From a bacterium (GTDB lineage: Bacteria; JACRDZ01; JAQUKH01), in the NCBI GenBank assembly GCA_040754625.1, contig JBFMCF010000096.1, forward strand, positions 1,651 through 65,650: a stretch of DNA of 64,000 nucleotides, in the 5' to 3' direction. Positions 3,852 through 14,585 of this stretch are shown here, one piece after another. The notes under the pieces were generated by a model that was not told where the DNA came from, did no database searches, and saw only the letters and a program-made list of their open reading frames with translations. Position 1 is the stretch's first letter. Each line of letters opens with the position of its first letter. The translations under genes and the position numbers were made by a program.

Positions 3852-4142
3852 TTACGCCGCCTTAAAACTAATAACCACTTCTTTCCCTAAAGCATGCGCG
3901 ATTTTATGCAATAATTTCAACGAAGGCACCCTTGTATCCGTGCCTTTTTCTAATCTGGCAATTACCGGCTGGCTGGTCCTGGCTTTTTGGGCAAGTTCTT
4001 TTTGGGTTATACCCTCTTTCTGCCTGATTTTCATAACAGCTTTTGCGATTCTATTTTTTATCAATTCGTCTTCGTAATAAATTCTGAATTCTTCATCTTT
4101 TATTTTTTCTTTAATTACGTCATCCAATAAAAGCGTTTTCAT
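3852..4142 (-). CDS. HTH XRE-family antitoxin (HigA-like)
   Basis: 96 aa; GITQKELAQKARTSQPVIARLEKG is a helix-turn-helix. It overlaps the upstream toxin gene by 23 bp, a toxin-first order as in HigBA. Confidence 0.6.
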   Translation of the reverse strand: MKTLLLDDVIKEKIKDEEFRIYYEDELIKNRIAKAVMKIRQKEGITQKELAQKARTSQPVIARLEKGTDTRVPSLKLLHKIAHALGKEVVISFKAA

Positions 4143-4473
4143 TTTTTAATACCTCCATTAAGCGTTTTGCCGCTACTTTTATTTCTTTATCCGGCGCCTT
4201 TTGCGATTGTTTTTTGTAAGAATGCAGCAAAACCATTATATTCTTTTTAATTGTTACATAAAATATTCTATATCCTCCGCCAATACTTCTTATTTTTATT
4301 TCCCAAAGTTTACCATCTATTTGTCGGAATTGAACTCTCGGAGATTCAAGTCCCAATTCCTGTATATTTTCCAAACACCCTAATATTTTTGCCTGATCAG
4401 TTTTTTCTAAACTATTAATAAATTCTAAAACAGGAGATTTCCCATTTGCACTTAAGAAAAATTTTATTTTCAT
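4120..4473 (-). CDS. Type II toxin, RelE/ParE superfamily (HigB/Gp49-like mRNA interferase)
   Basis: 117 aa. Size, the LWEIKIRSIGGGYRIFYV motif and pairing with the downstream XRE antitoxin fit RelE/HigB-family toxins. Confidence 0.5.
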   Translation of the reverse strand: MKIKFFLSANGKSPVLEFINSLEKTDQAKILGCLENIQELGLESPRVQFRQIDGKLWEIKIRSIGGGYRIFYVTIKKNIMVLLHSYKKQSQKAPDKEIKVAAKRLMEVLKNENAFIG

Positions 4474-4548: not shown

Positions 4549-5778
4549 TTAGTATTTCCACAAATCCCGATTCTGCCTGTAACTGGATAAATAAACCAGA
4601 AGCCTCGAAAAATCATAGAACCTGTTGGGGCCGATCAAACGCAAAATTGTCCGCATTACCGAGTATATAATTTTAAATTTAAATTTATTTTCTGATATCT
4701 TGGAATAGCCGCTTGGTTTATACGCAGATGAATGGCCTTTCTTTTCAAACAGGAAATTCTTCCTCGCGAAGCTGCCGACAACGCCGTTTGAGTCGAACGG
4801 ATCGTGGCCGGGAGGCAGTTCTTTTAAAATACACGCGTAAGCGCGGCGAAGCGTCGGGGATATATATTCCCCGCCGGACATATAATCAAACCCGTATTTT
4901 ATCGATTCCGCTCCTGTTTTTTTCGCGGAAAGCTTTTCCCCGTAGGCAGTGCCCAATTCTAAAAGGTCCGGCCGTTTTACATTTTTTTCGTATAAGGACC
5001 TTTTATTCAAATATTCCGGATCCGCGCCGTCAAAATTACTGAAGTGAAAAAAAATGAGAGGATAAATTTTATTTACAAGATAACGGCCTTCACTATCCTT
5101 TGTTATAAACCTCTCATATGAATTCCACGCGGCAGTATTATAACCTAAATTAAATGAAATATATATATCCTTGAATAAACAAGGCGCGATAGTAACCCAC
5201 TTCTGGTCCGTGGACAACCCGAATTGGGACTCCATAAAACTGAACTGCAGGCACCTGTTAGACCACCACTTTAAAAAAGATACTCCTTCCAGGGAATTTT
5301 TTACCGCGTAAAAACCCAGGTTAAACGAACCAAATCTCATCATAGCCATATCGCTTTCTGAAAAATTGTCGGATTGAGGTGTTGTATAGTGAGGGGTTAA
5401 GACTACTGAATGACCGTCTAAATCACATAAAACAGGTTCAACTGAATCATATAAACATGTATCAGCATCTAAAAATATTACCTTTTTAAATCTTTCAAAT
5501 AATTTTAAGGTAAGATACGGCTTAAGGCTGGTACTCAATTCTATGATATCATATTTAAACGCCAGCTCATAAAAGTCCGGAATGCCGACATCTTCAATCC
5601 AGACTATATTGGCTTCAACAGCAGAAAGATCAATAGTTGCCTTCTTATCAATAAGATATATTATTAACTTTATATTATTAAATTTTAATACCGATTCAGC
5701 AAGCACAAGCGCTTTAGGCATATAAGCTAAATTACAAACTGTAAAAATCGCATATTCCTGTTTTTTATCCGGAATCAC
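4549..5778 (-). CDS. Putative glycosyltransferase (GT-A-like, DxD motif)
   Basis: 409 aa, soluble, with the acidic motif FLDADTCLYDS. It lies in the glycosyltransferase block of the locus. Confidence 0.35.
   Translation of the reverse strand: MIPDKKQEYAIFTVCNLAYMPKALVLAESVLKFNNIKLIIYLIDKKATIDLSAVEANIVWIEDVGIPDFYELAFKYDIIELSTSLKPYLTLKLFERFKKVIFLDADTCLYDSVEPVLCDLDGHSVVLTPHYTTPQSDNFSESDMAMMRFGSFNLGFYAVKNSLEGVSFLKWWSNRCLQFSFMESQFGLSTDQKWVTIAPCLFKDIYISFNLGYNTAAWNSYERFITKDSEGRYLVNKIYPLIFFHFSNFDGADPEYLNKRSLYEKNVKRPDLLELGTAYGEKLSAKKTGAESIKYGFDYMSGGEYISPTLRRAYACILKELPPGHDPFDSNGVVGSFARKNFLFEKKGHSSAYKPSGYSKISENKFKFKIIYSVMRTILRLIGPNRFYDFSRLLVYLSSYRQNRDLWKY
4553..4693. repeat. About 135-bp direct repeat, copy 2 (overlaps the 3' end of the glycosyltransferase gene 4549..5778)
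   Basis: Near-identical to 3664..3797; contains an extra aaattt duplication. Confidence 0.85.
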
Positions 5779-6608
5779 TTTAATATCCTTTTTTTGGGCC
5801 CAAAAACATTAATTACCCTGACCAAAATTTGCCAGTAAATATACCCCGCGAATGAACGAATAACCGCGTAAGAGAATAAGATGTTCCCGCTTTTAATTGA
5901 GGCAAACAGCAATCTTATGCTTGCAAACGTGGTATCAAAAATCCGGTTAAAAGAATACTCGCGTAACAGCCTTTCCTTTCCAAAGATGACATACTTAGCA
6001 TCAGGCTGTTCCGACTCATGGTCAAAACCCGGAGTTTTTGAACACTCGCCGATCCTTAAATTATTATTATTTGATCGAAGGCAAAATTCATAATCCACGC
6101 AATCAACAAAATATTTTTCATTATGCCAGTTTATTCTTTTTAGGTTTTCGAGAAAAAATAAACTCCCGCTGCTTCTTGCCAGCAAAACATCTTTAAACAT
6201 AAATCTGTTCCCGGTAACTAAATCCCCATTTTTTTGTGTACCAAACACAATCGCGCTGTAACCGGATATTAAATTGGTGTTGTTAATATAAAAATCTTCA
6301 ACAAAATCCAAAGTATTACAATCAAATACCGTGTCCTGATCAAAAAATATTAAAGCAGGATATGAATCATAATACGCCTGGGCGCAAACAGATGAAATTC
6401 CAAAACCTAAACCCGCGTTTTTCCCACAAGTAATATATTTGGGAGTATTCGCATTGAATTTCCGGCAAAATTGCCTTATCAATTCATCTTCCGGGCTGTT
6501 ATCAAAAATATATATTGAAAACCCTGATGTTATCGCGCTTTGTAATCTGAGCGTCAGGTCTATATTTGGTTTGTAAGTAACCATTCCTATCGCAATTTTT
6601 CTATTCAC
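5775..6608 (-). CDS. GT2-family glycosyltransferase (WbbL-like rhamnosyltransferase type)
   Basis: IAIGMVTYKPNIDLTLRL...IFDNSPED...FFDQDT is the typical GT2 N-terminal signature. 4-bp overlap with the downstream gene. Confidence 0.55.
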   Translation of the reverse strand: MNRKIAIGMVTYKPNIDLTLRLQSAITSGFSIYIFDNSPEDELIRQFCRKFNANTPKYITCGKNAGLGFGISSVCAQAYYDSYPALIFFDQDTVFDCNTLDFVEDFYINNTNLISGYSAIVFGTQKNGDLVTGNRFMFKDVLLARSSGSLFFLENLKRINWHNEKYFVDCVDYEFCLRSNNNNLRIGECSKTPGFDHESEQPDAKYVIFGKERLLREYSFNRIFDTTFASIRLLFASIKSGNILFSYAVIRSFAGYIYWQILVRVINVFGPKKRILK

Positions 6609-6624
6609 TCTTATTCCCTTTAAA

Positions 6625-7896
6625 TTACAGTGACGTATATTTTTTCGCGTACATAAGTAAAATCATCAAATCGGCACCGGCCCTTATAACCCAGATGACC
6701 GCGGCTCCCGGCAATCCAAAATACTTTAAAAACATAAATAAAAGGGGAAAATAAAATACAAATTCTCCTAAATGTAAAATTGTGGTCATCTTGGCATTTC
6801 CTGCCGCTTGAACCGCGGCATAGGGGATTTGAGCTATGCCATTAAAAAATAATCCAACCGACAGAATAGAGGCAATTTTCCAGGAGTGTTGAGAAAAATC
6901 CCTTCCTAACCAAAGTGTTAAACCCCAATATGACCCGACAGCAATACTCAGGCATATCGCAAACATAGTAAGAGATGTTATTTTCAGGCTCTTTTTATAT
7001 ACGTTCTCAGCTCCCCTTTGATCCGCGCTCATCATAGAAGAAAGCCTTGGAAACAAAGCCGCTGCCAACGCACCGGGAATAATCAGAATACGAATTAAAA
7101 AATCAGAAGGCACAGTGTAATACGCGATTAAACCGGCACCTATCACGGATGAAATAATAAACCTGTCTGCCACCACCATTAAAGGGCTTACAATATTAGA
7201 CAAAGTCATCCAGGCACCAAATGAAAGCAGGTTGGATATCTCTTTCTCACTGCACTTTACCTTAATCCAGTTTATAGGCAACTTTTTATGCACTAAACAT
7301 ATATGCGCGCCTAATATCATAAACCTGGCTGCGATTAAACTGAACACTATCATATTAAGCGATGGTCCAAAAGCCATAACGCTTAAGACAGGTAACCCGA
7401 AATTAGCAAGCCCGAATAACAACCGCAGCAGATTAACTGTTTTAAAGTCTTCGAATGCTTCCAATACGCCTTTTAGCCCTGTTGTGAGAGTAACCATCGG
7501 GATACCAAATGCCACGATCAACAGGGAGTCAACTGTGTTTTGCTGCAGCGCCGCGCTGACATTCAGCCACTTAAAACCAAGCGGATTTGCCGCAACTGCT
7601 AATAAAACACCCCCAAAAGCCCCAGTAACTAACGTAAACAGCATCCCTGTCTTAACTAAACCAGATAATTTCTCAATTTGTTCTAACGCGCGATTAGCCG
7701 CGACTTGTTGAGTAAGCGCGCGGCCAAGCCCGAAATCAAAGAGGCTAAAATATCCAATTAAAGTCCATACAAGCGTAAGAATGCCGAATGCCTCTACTCC
7801 AATTTTATTTAACAAATACGGGATAGTGACAACACCCAGCAGGAATGGAATACCAGCCCCTGATATATTCCACAGCGTATTACGTTTCAATGACAT
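6625..7896 (-). CDS. wzx: Wzx-type polysaccharide flippase (MOP superfamily)
   Basis: 423 aa, about 12 TM. The N-terminus LWNISGAGIPFLLGVVTIPYLLNKIGVEAFGILTLVWTLIGYFSLFDFGLGRALTQ is the classic Wzx/PST start. Confidence 0.7.
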   Translation of the reverse strand: MSLKRNTLWNISGAGIPFLLGVVTIPYLLNKIGVEAFGILTLVWTLIGYFSLFDFGLGRALTQQVAANRALEQIEKLSGLVKTGMLFTLVTGAFGGVLLAVAANPLGFKWLNVSAALQQNTVDSLLIVAFGIPMVTLTTGLKGVLEAFEDFKTVNLLRLLFGLANFGLPVLSVMAFGPSLNMIVFSLIAARFMILGAHICLVHKKLPINWIKVKCSEKEISNLLSFGAWMTLSNIVSPLMVVADRFIISSVIGAGLIAYYTVPSDFLIRILIIPGALAAALFPRLSSMMSADQRGAENVYKKSLKITSLTMFAICLSIAVGSYWGLTLWLGRDFSQHSWKIASILSVGLFFNGIAQIPYAAVQAAGNAKMTTILHLGEFVFYFPLLFMFLKYFGLPGAAVIWVIRAGADLMILLMYAKKYTSL

Positions 7897-10259: not shown

Positions 10260-11324
10260 TTATTTACTTATATAATATTCGTAAGTCTTTTTGATTCCAT
10301 CCGACAAGCTAATTTCCGGTTTCCACCCTAAAGATTTAATTTTTGAACTATCAAGAAGTTTTCTTGGAATACCGTCAGGTTTTGAAAAATCAAATTTTAT
10401 TTCTCCGACAAAACCCACTATATCTTTTATCAACTTTGCTATATCTTTTATTTTTATTTCCTCACCGCTCCCGGTGTTAATAAATTCACCTATATTTTTA
10501 TATTCATAATTTTCCATCAAAAATAAACATGCATCAGCCATATCATCCACATATAAAAATTCCCTATAAGGTTCACCGCTGCCCCAAAGAGTAACATATT
10601 CCGGAGTTATACCCAGTTTTTCCAGGCTTAAATCATCAACGGCATCTGAATTCAGCCTGAAGTTAAACCCTATAGGATAAGTTTCTATGTCTTTTTTTAC
10701 CTCGTTATACTTTTTTTGGCTCAAAAGTTTTGCGAGATGAAACTTTCTTATCAAAGCCGCCGGGAGATGAGCTGTTTCTAAATTATAATTATCTCCCCGG
10801 CCATAAAGATTTGTAGGCATACCGGAAATAAAATTTGTCCCATATTGCTCATTGTAATATTGGCATAATTTTATCGCGGCTATTTTTGCTATCGCATACG
10901 GTTCATTAGTCGGTTCCAAAATCCCTATAAGGAGATGCTCTTCTTTCATCGGTTGAGGCGCGTTTCTTGGATAAATACAAGATGAACCAAGATTAAGAAG
11001 TTTTCCCACACCGTATTTATAAGCGGAATTTATAACATTGGCACCTATTATAATATTATCATATATAAACTCCGCTTTATATGTGCTGTTTGCAAGAATT
11101 CCGCCGACTTTTGCTGCTGCCAGGAACACATACTCGGGTTTTTCTTTTTCAAAAAAATCTTCAACTTCAGCCTGCTTTCTCAAATCAAGTTCTTTGCTTG
11201 TTTTGACAACTACATTTGTATATCCTGAGGCTTGAACTTTTCTTAGTAAAGCAGACCCTACTAATCCTTTATGTCCTGCGATATAAATTTTTGAACTTTT
11301 GTCCATCTGTTTACTTTTTCCCAT
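10260..11324 (-). CDS. fcl: GDP-L-fucose synthase (GDP-4-keto-6-deoxy-D-mannose 3,5-epimerase/4-reductase)
   Basis: KIYIAGHKGLVGSALLRKV...FLAAAKVGGI..N..YPA.F...N......N...A......KLL.LGSSCIYP: full Fcl/WcaG signature. Confidence 0.8.
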   Translation of the reverse strand: MGKSKQMDKSSKIYIAGHKGLVGSALLRKVQASGYTNVVVKTSKELDLRKQAEVEDFFEKEKPEYVFLAAAKVGGILANSTYKAEFIYDNIIIGANVINSAYKYGVGKLLNLGSSCIYPRNAPQPMKEEHLLIGILEPTNEPYAIAKIAAIKLCQYYNEQYGTNFISGMPTNLYGRGDNYNLETAHLPAALIRKFHLAKLLSQKKYNEVKKDIETYPIGFNFRLNSDAVDDLSLEKLGITPEYVTLWGSGEPYREFLYVDDMADACLFLMENYEYKNIGEFINTGSGEEIKIKDIAKLIKDIVGFVGEIKFDFSKPDGIPRKLLDSSKIKSLGWKPEISLSDGIKKTYEYYISK

Positions 11325-11865
11325 TTTTTTGCCGTTTTCTTACAGTGTGCTTAAATTTCAACACAGCAAAATTCAATTCGATAGTTGTCTCATTCTCGTT
11401 AGACACCAAACTATCATCCAGAATTTCGGCAATAATCCCGCCGCTTTTTTGAAGCAAGTTCTGTTTTTGGCTCTCGTCATGTACGTTTGATATCGCTTTA
11501 ATATTTCGTGTAAGGTTTCTAATTTTCGCGAATGTCTCAATAATGGCTATTGTCGTTTGGGCAGCTTGCTGACTCTTTAATATCGTTGCCAGCATATACA
11601 AGCCTTTTTCAGAAAAAGCTTTGGGCAAAACTCTTATCTTTGAAAATTTTGCGGTGGAAAATTTCCACCGCAAACCTTCAAACTCCGTTCTATTAAGCTC
11701 AAGAATATAACCATCAGGAAATTTGCCGGGATTATTTTTGACTGCTTTGTTTATATCCCTTGTTTCAACTCTATAAAGTTCTGCTATATCAGTATCAAGA
11801 ATAACTTTTTGGTTTCTCAATTCAAGTATTTTGCTTTCAATTTTTTCAAACGCAACTATATCCAT
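11311..11865 (-). CDS. ORF6N (KilA-N-like) domain protein, phage/mobile-element-associated DNA-binding protein
   Basis: 184 aa. N-terminal ILELRNQKVILDTDIAELYRVETRDINKAVKNNPGKFPDGY resembles the ORF6N domain of phage antirepressors. It overlaps the fcl start by 14 nt. Confidence 0.45.
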   Translation of the reverse strand: MDIVAFEKIESKILELRNQKVILDTDIAELYRVETRDINKAVKNNPGKFPDGYILELNRTEFEGLRWKFSTAKFSKIRVLPKAFSEKGLYMLATILKSQQAAQTTIAIIETFAKIRNLTRNIKAISNVHDESQKQNLLQKSGGIIAEILDDSLVSNENETTIELNFAVLKFKHTVRKRQKNGKK

Positions 11866-11880
11866 TTAAACCTCCAAATA

Positions 11881-13071
11881 TTAATGGCCTTTTACCGCTG
11901 CGCAATAAATTTTTTCATAAAAGGCAAAATCATGATTTGTATATTCAAACCCTTTTTTCTTTGAAATTTCTATCCCTTCACCCGGCGCATCCAGCCCGAT
12001 TAATCTTAAATCATAATCAACCATTATTTTTATCAGTTCTTGAAAATTTACCCTCGCCTGCCATTTTAATTTCTTTTTTGCCTTTGTCACATCTGCTTTG
12101 AGATAATCCACTTCTGTAGGCCTGAAATAACGCGGGTCTATTTCAATTAAAACGTCTCCCTTTTTAATGCTGGAGGTTGGAGGCTGGAGGCTGGAGGTTA
12201 AGGAATGAATGATACCTTTTTCGTTTACACCTTTTCCTTCCCATGCGATTTCAATACCGGCGTATTTAAAAGCAGTCTCAACAAATTCACGGACTTTATA
12301 ACTTTCCCCCGTACCAACGACATAATCATCCGGTTCAGACTGCTGAAGCATAAGCCACATCATTTCTACATATTCAGGGGCAAATCCCCAGTCACGTTTG
12401 GCATCGAGATTTCCCAGATAAAGCTTATCCTGCTTTCCTGCCAATATATTTGCTAAAGCTCTTGTGATTTTTCTTGTTACAAAAGTTTCTCCGCGCCGCG
12501 GGCTTTCGTGATTAAAAAGAATACCGTTGCAGGCAAACATATTATATCCGTCACGGTAATTTTTAGCCATCCAGTAAGAATACAATTTTGCGCAGGCGTA
12601 AGGACTTCTTGGTTCAAAAGGGGTATTTTCAGACTGGGGCGGTTTTGCAGAACCAAATATCTCCGATGACGAGGCTTGATAGAATTTTGTTTGGACGCCG
12701 CTTCTTCTTACCGCTTCCAGCAATCTTACCGTCCCCAGAGCAGTAACATTACTGGTATATTCCGGAATATCAAAACTGACACGTACATGGCTTTGAGCAC
12801 CCAGATGGTATATTTCCTGAGGTTTAATACTATAAATTAAACTGTTTATCTGCTCGGCATCTGATAAATCCCCGTAATGCAGAAAAAGCTTTGCACCGGG
12901 GGAATGAATATCGACATAAATATGATCAATCCTGCCTGTATTAAAGGTACTGGCTCGGCGTATAATACCGTGTACTTCATATCCCCTGGACAAGAGAAAT
13001 TCGGCAAGATAAGAACCATCCTGGCCGGTTATTCCCGTAATTAACGCTTTTTTCGCATTTTTACGCGGCAT
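11881..13071 (-). CDS. gmd: GDP-mannose 4,6-dehydratase
   Basis: [28 protein letters not shown]...[28 protein letters not shown]: canonical Gmd. Carries an unusual loop insert encoded by a 7-bp x4 tandem repeat. Confidence 0.9.
12170..12197. repeat. Heptanucleotide tandem repeat (YTGGAGG x4) inside the gmd coding sequence
   Basis: ctggagg ttggagg ctggagg ctggagg; encodes SSLQPPTSS in a Gmd surface loop. Confidence 0.8.
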
Positions 13072-13145: not shown

Positions 13146-14585
13146 CTACCTTCCATATATATCATCAATTCTCTCGATATCATCTTCCCCTAAATATTCA
13201 CCGTTCTGGACCTCTATTATTTCTAAAGATGTTTCCCCTTGGTTTTCCAGCCGGTGAACGGCAGTTTTTGGAATATAGGCGGATTCGTTTTCACGGACAA
13301 TCAATTCTTTTTCTCCAATCGTAACTTTTGCAATTCCTTTTATAACCACCCAGTGTTCTGAACGATGTTTATGCCTCTGGAGGCTTAATTTAGCATTTTT
13401 ATTTACGATTATTCTCTTAATTTTATACCGGCCACCTTCCTCAAGCACAGTATAACTTCCCCAGGGCCTGTAAGTACAAGTATGTTCTACCGCTTCTTTG
13501 CGGTTATCTTTTTCTAATTTTCCAATAACATCCCTGACTTTCTGGGAACATCCCTTTTTTGCTATAAGCGTGGCATCAGCAGTATCAACCACAAGACAAT
13601 CTTCCAAACCTACCGTGGCTATTAATCTTTTGTCACCAATAATAAGACAATTTTTTGTGTCTGTAGTTAAAATATCACCTATCTTCGCGTTACCCGATTC
13701 ATCTTTTTCGAGTATTTCAAAAAAAGAATCCCATGACCCGATATCGTTCCAATATAAATCCATTGGAATGACCGCGACTTTGTCCGATTTTTCCATCACG
13801 GCGTAATCAATTGAAAGAGAAGGCATTCTACCAAATTCTTTCAGCATATCATCAAAATTTTTATCGAGAAATTCACCAATTTGAGGGGCATGTTTATTTA
13901 ATTCTTTAATAGCTGTCCCAATGGTAAAGGCAAACATTCCCGAGTTCCAGTAATAATCCCCGGAATCAACATATTTCTGCGCGGTCTCTCTATCCGGCTT
14001 CTCAACAAACTTTTCCACCTTTAAATAATTAATTTCTTCTGCTTTCTTCCTTCTGCCTTCTTCCTTCAGTCTTCTGACTTTAATATATCCATACCCCGTT
14101 TCAGGTTTCAAAGGTTTTATACCAAAAGTTGCCATATAGTTATCTTTAGCAACCTCTTCCGCATATTTCATATATTTTTTAAACATATCTTCATCTTCAT
14201 TTTTTATCATCTGGTCTGATGGCAAAACATAAATTAACTCATCCAGCCCGCAGCCAAGTTTTTCAATACAGTATTTCACACCTAATGCTATTGCAGGAGC
14301 GGTATTTTTACTCATAGGCTCAAGAATTATATGAGCAGGCGTATTCGCCTGCTCATCCTGAGTACAACGAAGGATCTCAGAAATATCGGATTTCACATGG
14401 AATTGATATTTATCGTTAGTTATAAAAATAATATCTTTTAATGATACCAAACCTGAAAGCCTTGCTATGGTCTGCTGCAAAAAAGATTTACCATTGTTTA
14501 TTTTTAAAAACTGTTTCGGGTAATTGCGCCTGCTCATCGGCCATAACCGCGTCCCTGAGCCGCCCGCCAAAATAAATGTTTTCAC
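13146..14585 (-). CDS. manC: Mannose-1-phosphate guanylyltransferase / mannose-6-phosphate isomerase (bifunctional, cupin C-terminus)
   Basis: LAGGSGTRLWPMSRRNYPKQFL at the N-terminus; C-terminal cupin HRLEN.GE....IEVQNGEYLGEDDIERIDDIYGR. Confidence 0.85.
   Translation of the reverse strand: MKTFILAGGSGTRLWPMSRRNYPKQFLKINNGKSFLQQTIARLSGLVSLKDIIFITNDKYQFHVKSDISEILRCTQDEQANTPAHIILEPMSKNTAPAIALGVKYCIEKLGCGLDELIYVLPSDQMIKNEDEDMFKKYMKYAEEVAKDNYMATFGIKPLKPETGYGYIKVRRLKEEGRRKKAEEINYLKVEKFVEKPDRETAQKYVDSGDYYWNSGMFAFTIGTAIKELNKHAPQIGEFLDKNFDDMLKEFGRMPSLSIDYAVMEKSDKVAVIPMDLYWNDIGSWDSFFEILEKDESGNAKIGDILTTDTKNCLIIGDKRLIATVGLEDCLVVDTADATLIAKKGCSQKVRDVIGKLEKDNRKEAVEHTCTYRPWGSYTVLEEGGRYKIKRIIVNKNAKLSLQRHKHRSEHWVVIKGIAKVTIGEKELIVRENESAYIPKTAVHRLENQGETSLEIIEVQNGEYLGEDDIERIDDIYGR

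Follow-up and report, generated by a model that had tools for sequence, protein, structure and literature searches.

A heptanucleotide tandem repeat in gmd occupies a hypervariable loop of GDP-mannose 4,6-dehydratase and is probably a tolerated microsatellite

A tandem array of 7-bp units inside gmd, the gene for GDP-mannose 4,6-dehydratase (Gmd), raises the question of whether the gene is switched on and off by gain and loss of units or whether the array is merely tolerated by the protein that it encodes. The array lies in a contiguous stretch of bacterial DNA of 64,000 nucleotides (hereafter the window), where a first-pass annotation had reported four 7-bp units at 12170–12197 inside gmd and proposed a phase-variation switch. 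The four units are confirmed by the letters themselves, by a TRF call and by simulations. The features on which the analysis depends are given below.

12170..12197, minus strand: heptanucleotide array, (CCTCCAG)(CCTCCAG)(CCTCCAA)(CCTCCAG) on the coding strand, gene nucleotides 875–902
11881..13071, minus strand: gmd, GDP-mannose 4,6-dehydratase, 396 aa (PF16363, TIGR01472, PDB 1DB3)
12154..12198, minus strand: hypervariable Gmd loop, residues 292–306 (alignment, loop-length survey, and AlphaFold model)
13146..14585, minus strand: manC, mannose-1-phosphate guanylyltransferase / mannose-6-phosphate isomerase, upstream of gmd (TIGR01479, 538.6 bits against a cut-off of 373)
10260..11324, minus strand: probable fcl, GDP-L-fucose synthase, downstream of gmd (NF047922, 440.8 bits against a cut-off of 500)

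On the forward strand, the units read CTGGAGG (12170–12176), TTGGAGG (12177–12183), CTGGAGG (12184–12190), and CTGGAGG (12191–12197), which on the gmd coding strand is (CCTCCAR)x4, beginning in codon 292 of 396. TRF places the array at 12169–12197 with a period of 7, 4.1 copies, 90% matches, and a score of 51. The array is interrupted by the TTGGAGG of unit 2, and its longest perfect period-7 stretch measures 20 bp, or 2.9 units. The period-7 run comprises 22 matched positions, whereas in 100 first-order Markov sequences modelled on the window such runs average 13.3 positions and never exceed 19, so that 0 of 100 are as long. Furthermore, tandem CCTCCAR pairs occur in the window as three overlapping matches, all of them at 12170–12197, against 0.07 expected, and the gmd tract is the sole non-triplet array with at least three units and at most two mismatches in 64 kb. 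The tract is thus a 7-nt tandem array longer than composition predicts, as in the class surveyed by Mrazek. As far as the 64-kb window shows, it does not belong to a genome-wide dispersed heptamer family of the TAACTGA or STRR type, no other tandem CCTCCAR being present there.

The gmd product is a full-length member of its family. It matches Pfam PF16363 with an E-value of 5.6e-146 and E. coli Gmd (PDB 1DB3) with an E-value of 1.1e-140, and against the TIGR01472 equivalog it scores 558.6 bits over a cut-off of 415, covering profile positions 1–341 of 342. In the AlphaFold model, which is mediocre overall (mean pLDDT 66.6) and served solely for loop placement, residues 292–306 form a coil between the β-strands 285–291 and 307–311, and the pLDDT is 65 at residues 291–300 versus 90–94 in the flanking blocks. 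The corresponding loop of E. coli Gmd (1DB3), SVTGHDAP---GVKPGD, is three residues shorter than that of the window. The span from the W to the E of RYFRPxE has 44 residues in the window; across 119 homologues of 72–100% identity, its mode is 41 (61 cases) and its range is 30–57. In the nearest relatives, P0002 and P0128 (83–86% identity), the loop is absent entirely, and anything from 0 to ~30 residues is tolerated there among the orthologues. The length survey, the loopless closest relative, and the model coil with its dip in confidence together point to an exposed loop that is tolerant of change. The tract had been described beforehand as an atypical SSLQPPTSS insertion where canonical Gmd proteins have a different short loop; this part of the description does not hold, the difference from E. 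coli being only three residues and lying inside the family range.

The earlier remark that the array is in frame only as a 28-bp block is loosely worded; the frame is indeed kept, since the array amounts to three units (21 bp) beyond one copy. The prediction that gain or loss of one unit would frameshift gmd is borne out in silico. Changes of one or two units in either direction bring a stop at residues 298–313, with the loss of ~90 C-terminal residues including the invariant DPRYFRP, and a change of three units retains the gmd frame. On paper, the tract is therefore a non-triplet unit inside an open reading frame, 7 bp long and placed at codon 292, of which gain or loss would switch expression.

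The gene is situated in the block manC–gmd–(ORF6N)–fcl, which belongs to a polysaccharide gene cluster spanning 55 kb or more. The Fcl of the window carries a ~45-aa insertion before VTLWGSG (10480–10760, minus strand), which splits the NF047922 match in two and explains the score under the cut-off. The Fcl loop equivalent to the site of this insertion is hypervariable across 56 orthologues. No heptamer array was found in the fcl of the window, the loop before VTLWGSG included.

Among named relatives, the best matches to the housekeeping pyrophosphatase of the window come from Thermodesulfobacteriota at ~63% identity; one further sister reaches 83%. The Gmd protein (MEW6088377.1) is a database singleton: an exact look-up of the protein found no second copy, metagenome contigs searched with the flanks as anchors and a variable gap between them gave no allele of 1–5 units, and a scan of genome contigs recovered no conspecific. 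The comparisons of unit number and frame that follow are comparisons among relatives, the species of the window being represented by one environmental assembly. The setting of host-associated contingency loci, which the first-pass annotation had brought in as a precedent, does not fit this source, an uncultured environmental lineage known from a metagenome-assembled genome (MAG) rather than a known host-associated pathogen.

Loop DNA was extracted from 58 of 80 orthologous loci. The peptide of the array, [LS][QS]PP[TA]S[SN], lies at an equal distance from the GD anchor in L005, L081, L083–85, and L086, of which the gmd genes have only 66–67% DNA identity to that of the window. In L005, L081, L083, and L086, CCTCCAR-related arrays are positionally equivalent and stand in various states of decay. 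Equal-length arrays that differ only by point substitutions are shared by L047, L068, L018, and L023, and likewise by L008 and L082. The raw identities had suggested an exceptional nucleotide conservation of the arrays, which was rejected by a sliding-window control, where array identity falls between the 3rd and the 61st percentile of equal-sized windows of the gene.

Within clusters of near-identical proteins, the unit number is stable. In the P0051 cluster, the repeat number is uniform in seven members that are 95–99% identical, and no whole-unit gain or loss (7 bp, or 7 aa in frame) is reported within eight 90% clusters comprising ~60 sequences. The loop differs by 2 aa in cluster 5 and by 1 aa in cluster 10. 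Differences in protein length within clusters were considered as unit changes and rejected, almost all of them being alternative N-terminal start calls. Out-of-frame alleles at the array number 0 of ~25 array-bearing gmd and fcl alleles. In the 80 gmd genome loci, no loop frameshift was found, and the two frameshifted loci are hit elsewhere than at the array, L061 after RYFR and L069 near residue 55. Neither of the truncated cluster members, P0350 and P0357, ends at the array. L061 (near 4924–4927) and P0350 are both frameshifted right after the RYFR of DPRYFRP; the frameshift of L061 is likely a sequencing error, given the long-read MAG from which it comes.

A change of unit number is seen between lineages. 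L207 carries (CCTCCAG)x5, exactly three units (7 aa) above L005 at 87% amino acid identity, and through homogenisation all five have G at position 7. P0331 has a loop allele 7 aa shorter than those of its 94%-identical cluster mates. The difference of three units between L207 and L005 indicates that slippage is real over evolutionary time and that only in-frame survivors remain. In these sequences, slippage at the loop shows only in comparisons of one lineage with another, and every case has kept the frame. Uniform repeat number across strains and conservation of the repeat as protein sequence across distant orthologues had been named in advance as observations that would speak against a switch; both are largely found in the relatives, in the form of the peptide match in distant orthologues and the uniform counts in ~60 sequences.

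The heptamer period is not peculiar to this gene. In 601 kb of gmd loci, the non-triplet arrays comprise 16 of period 7, three of period 6, and one of period 9, with none of periods 5, 8, 10, or 11. Of the 16 period-7 arrays, seven fall either within the Gmd loop or within a homologous loop of the neighbouring Fcl just before VEIWGTG. The two loops make up ~0.9% of the 601 kb, and heptamer arrays are concentrated in them ~47-fold compared with the remainder. Other lineages carry different units at the same site of the Gmd loop, namely ACTCAAC x4.9 (L008), TTACGAA x4.9 (L047), and CCTCCAA (L005), and a protein search seeded with L008 reveals at least five heptamer-derived peptide families in the Gmd loop, distributed over Syntrophorhabdaceae, Nitrospirota, and other deltaproteobacterial MAGs. 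In addition, one unit is found both in the Gmd loop and in the Fcl loop or beside fcl of the same genome in L005/L207, L007, L008, L047, and L023/L068; the same unit in gmd and fcl of one genome is not explained by local slippage alone. L207 and L208 contain 5–7 heptamer arrays per 10 kb.

Outside these genes, the unit of the window is common. An unbiased metagenome scan for (CCTCCAR)x3 at any position returned at least 80 loci, in many unrelated places, and at none of the 80 loci among the matches listed does the array lie inside a gmd, fcl, or manC homologue. Among the same matches, at least 46 arrays have three units, at least 24 have four, and at least 13 have 5–17, and many of the CCTCCAR arrays lie within runs of related heptamers or at gene ends. 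A specific tie of the CCTCCAR unit to gmd and fcl was rejected on this result (0/80 among the matches listed), and, on the same matches, CCTCCAR is a common environmental microsatellite rather than a gmd device. In 412 kb of independent metagenome loci, again among the matches listed, 27 further period-7 arrays were counted, versus 2, 7, and 1 for periods 5, 6, and 8. The Gmd and Fcl loops most likely owe their excess of arrays to being places where an array can persist in a conserved protein, together with inheritance of old arrays. Small PF05635-like genes show a further association: of 248 arrays, 10 are found 60 nt or less from an end of such a gene, versus ~1 expected.

Several heptanucleotide systems provide a standard against which the gmd tract can be placed. 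The closest is neuO, the O-acetyltransferase gene of the CUS-3 prophage of E. coli K1, which has 3–53 units in 64 genomes, with 20 the commonest number and 65.6% of genomes OFF; in a strain with 21 repeats, ~7% of cultured cells have one unit more or fewer (PMC13001214). Both cases have a 7-nt tandem unit in the coding region of a surface-polysaccharide enzyme, with one of three phases full-length, and the neuO array is read in all three frames with a peptide period of seven residues, as in the gmd tract (PMC13001214). However, the neuO array is situated at the 5' end, consists of perfect units, varies among strains and in culture, and is mostly OFF (PMC13001214), whereas the gmd tract, at codon 292 of 396, has four units, is interrupted, is not known to vary, and is chromosomal in an environmental MAG. 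The long, perfect, strain-variable array at the 5' end that characterizes the neuO type is accordingly not what is found at nucleotides 875–902 of the 1191 of gmd.

In H. influenzae, the promoters of hmw1A and hmw2A contain heptanucleotide SSRs of 13–38 copies, and the genes for TonB-dependent receptors contain 1–13 heptanucleotide copies with strain variation and frameshifted alleles (PMC2651432). The gmd tract resembles these SSRs in its heptanucleotide unit; in theirs, phase variation of surface proteins has been proven or inferred, and neither the 13–38 promoter copies nor the strain-variable counts nor the frameshifted alleles are seen at the gmd tract. The permissive threshold given by Power et al. 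2009 is at least three uninterrupted heptanucleotide units (PMC2651432), and the 2.9 perfect units of the gmd tract fall below it. Heptanucleotide tracts with proven switching mostly carry 13–53 units. According to Mrazek 2007 in the summary given in PMC4679880, heptanucleotides are the most abundant class of long SSRs in many prokaryotes, and a slippage preference of the polymerase is proposed for this abundance. The gmd tract is like the class so summarised in being a heptamer array beyond chance, and the same heptamer bias is present in the 601 kb of gmd loci and, among the matches listed, in the 412 kb of metagenome loci. The repeats of coding regions in that survey, to go by the same summary, are mostly multiples of three, whereas the gmd tract is a non-triplet repeat kept in frame in a conserved enzyme. 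The TAACTGA arrays of Beggiatoaceae, Cyanobacteria, and Bacteroidetes share a single unit across the genome and for the most part directly precede start codons (MacGregor 2015, PMC4679880). They share with the gmd tract a short length of 2–6 copies, and their rare intragenic copies are confined to tolerant parts of proteins; they differ in that the unit of the gmd tract forms just one array in the 64 kb of the window.

With a probability of roughly 0.68, the gmd tract is a heptanucleotide microsatellite that arose by slippage and that a permissive loop tolerates. Replication slippage in the exposed, sequence-tolerant hairpin loop of Gmd would have generated the array, kept as an in-frame insertion of the seven residues LQPPTSS, which three extra units would have added to an otherwise shorter loop. 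The S/T/L-rich coding sequence of the loop holds a proto-repeat, ACC TCC AGC CTC, which can be read as A-CCTCCAG-CCTC, and deleting three units in silico gives back a plausible short loop. Such arrays would emerge widely, and in proteins with an essential fold they would survive only where the peptide is unimportant and units have, on balance, been gained or lost in threes. A tract of just four units, one of which breaks the repeat, is expected to slip rarely, and gmd variants thrown out of frame would be ordinary loss-of-function mutants rather than an arm of a selected switch. Three points count against a tolerated microsatellite: the out-of-frame intermediates, the ~47-fold concentration in the Gmd and Fcl loops, and the unit shared by gmd and fcl. 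As to the first, a four-unit non-triplet array that arises by single-unit steps passes out of frame, which implies that loss of gmd is tolerated at least transiently.

These same intermediates, inferred to have been OFF, are among the arguments for a low-rate, neuO-like contingency switch with three phases in a tolerant loop, in which a gmd-OFF subpopulation would reversibly lack the fucosylated surface glycan and may thereby escape from phages or predators that use this glycan as their receptor. Its other arguments are the truncation of Gmd at residues 298–313 by one or two units with retention of the frame at three, the position of gmd inside a polysaccharide cluster of at least 55 kb, the recurrence of Gmd and Fcl loop arrays in several lineages together with the pair that differs by three units with homogenised units, and the precedent of neuO, where a heptanucleotide array in the coding region of a capsule-modifying enzyme permits expression in a single phase out of three (PMC13001214). 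The precedent also supplies numbers that lie far from the gmd tract, 20 units being the commonest and 65.6% of genomes being OFF (PMC13001214), and the tract itself has only four units, one interrupted, with 2.9 perfect. Such a switch is unlikely in view of the complete lack of OFF alleles among ~25, the lack of reported whole-unit changes in ~60 near-identical sequences, and the decay at constant length by point substitution in L047/L068/L018/L023 and L008/L082. CCTCCAR is, moreover, unassociated with gmd and fcl (0/80 among the matches listed), and no report of SSR-mediated switching of gmd was found in the literature searched. What stands of the switch proposed at the outset is the non-triplet repeat and the truncating frameshift; the atypical loop, the length of the tract, and the variation in relatives do not support it.

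In a third account, the array is an element acting at the nucleotide level, either a site for a DNA or mRNA factor that recognizes tandem heptamers or a remnant of a mobile-cassette boundary, common to the co-regulated GDP-fucose genes. It could explain the same unit in the Gmd and Fcl loops or beside fcl in L005/L207, L007, L008, L047, and L023/L068, as well as the 10 of 248 arrays within 60 nt of the ends of PF05635-like genes (~1 expected), some of them as inverted flanks. In the window, however, the tandem unit is confined to gmd, fcl has no array, and there is no PF05635-like gene; array conservation is unexceptional against the rest of the gene, and the units differ among lineages, so that they offer no common motif. 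This account is judged very improbable. A chance match or an assembly artefact, which the metagenome-assembled source and the singleton status of the protein might suggest, is hardly credible: none of 100 simulations reaches the observed run, the open reading frame is intact and full-length with an equivalog-level match, equivalent arrays exist in independent assemblies of relatives, and a 28-bp tract fits well inside one short read.

The preferred reading, a tolerated microsatellite, implies that on present evidence the label of phase-variable is unwarranted for the gmd of the window. The wider pattern is that one Gmd loop and one Fcl loop repeatedly hold in-frame heptanucleotide arrays in unrelated environmental lineages. 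These arrays document, in natural sequences, the entry of non-triplet microsatellites into conserved enzymes, their growth by steps of three units, and their decay. A more ambitious interpretation, in which the loop arrays of Gmd and Fcl, and perhaps of ManC, evolved repeatedly as slow three-phase switches that control the GDP-fucose-dependent surface glycans of free-living environmental anaerobes, with the tract of the window as a short example, is decidedly unlikely; under this interpretation, the loop may be hypervariable as a landing pad for arrays, and the unit shared by gmd and fcl may reflect common origin or control. If it were true, as length heterogeneity in reads would indicate, contingency loci would reach from host-adapted pathogens to free-living bacteria of sediment and groundwater. 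The leads of note are the recurrent arrays of the Gmd and Fcl loops and the link to the ends of PF05635 genes.

The arrays of the relatives are positioned as follows: in L005 at 4880–4930, 5497–5525, and 6305–6330; in L008 at 4863–4899 and 6389–6427; in L047 at 4893–4929 and 5994–6029; in L014 at 6054–6085; in L207 at 5893–5940 and 6618–6650, and in the fcl loop near 7313; and in L007 in the gmd and fcl loops. In L093, L099, L118, L148, and L161, CCTCCAR lies inside mosaics of kindred heptamers, for example CCTCCAG followed by CCTACAG, or AGCTATC followed by CCTCCAG. The mosaics suggest array-rich regions that diversify unit by unit.

PF05635 is the '23S_rRNA_IVP' family, a four-helix bundle. 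An array at 308–364 of L207 lies beside such a gene at 369–728, the array at 5497–5525 of L005 follows a gene at 5193–5492, and an array at 5532–5564 of L007 follows a gene at 5223–5498. Two arrays in inverted orientation flank the gene both in L208 (arrays 3911–3938 and 4304–4329, gene 3940–4305) and in L144 (arrays 63–126 and 505–537, gene 135–470). PF05635-like genes are often inserted beside gmd, as in L083, L086, L207, and L208. Heptamer arrays may mark the borders of cassettes.

Within the window, a second period-7 tract, degenerate and purine-rich, is located in manC at 14036–14080 (minus strand), where AGAAGGM x6 encodes RRLKEEGRRKKAEE. TRF describes it with a period of 7, 6.4 copies, and 73% matches, or with a period of 14, 2.9 copies, and 88% matches; it may be a decayed heptamer array or a mere Lys/Glu/Arg-rich segment. 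An antisense open reading frame at 12205–12456, whose start lies 7 nt past a GGAGG in the array, was considered and rejected, since an equally long antisense opening exists in 29 of 63 orthologues and all genes of the window are on the minus strand. Between gmd and fcl, an ORF6N-domain gene at 11311–11865 (minus strand; PF10543, E = 1.9e-27) overlaps the start of fcl by 14 nt. ORF6N genes are usually found in phage and antirepressor settings, and in relatives a PF05635 gene or a toxin–antitoxin-like gene often stands at this place. All 58 genuine-looking open reading frames of at least 150 aa in the window (1–64000) are on the minus strand, and the polysaccharide cluster, which takes up most of the window, contains two asparagine-synthase paralogues, a B12-binding radical SAM gene, two Wzy_C genes, Wzz, a flippase, and an export protein.
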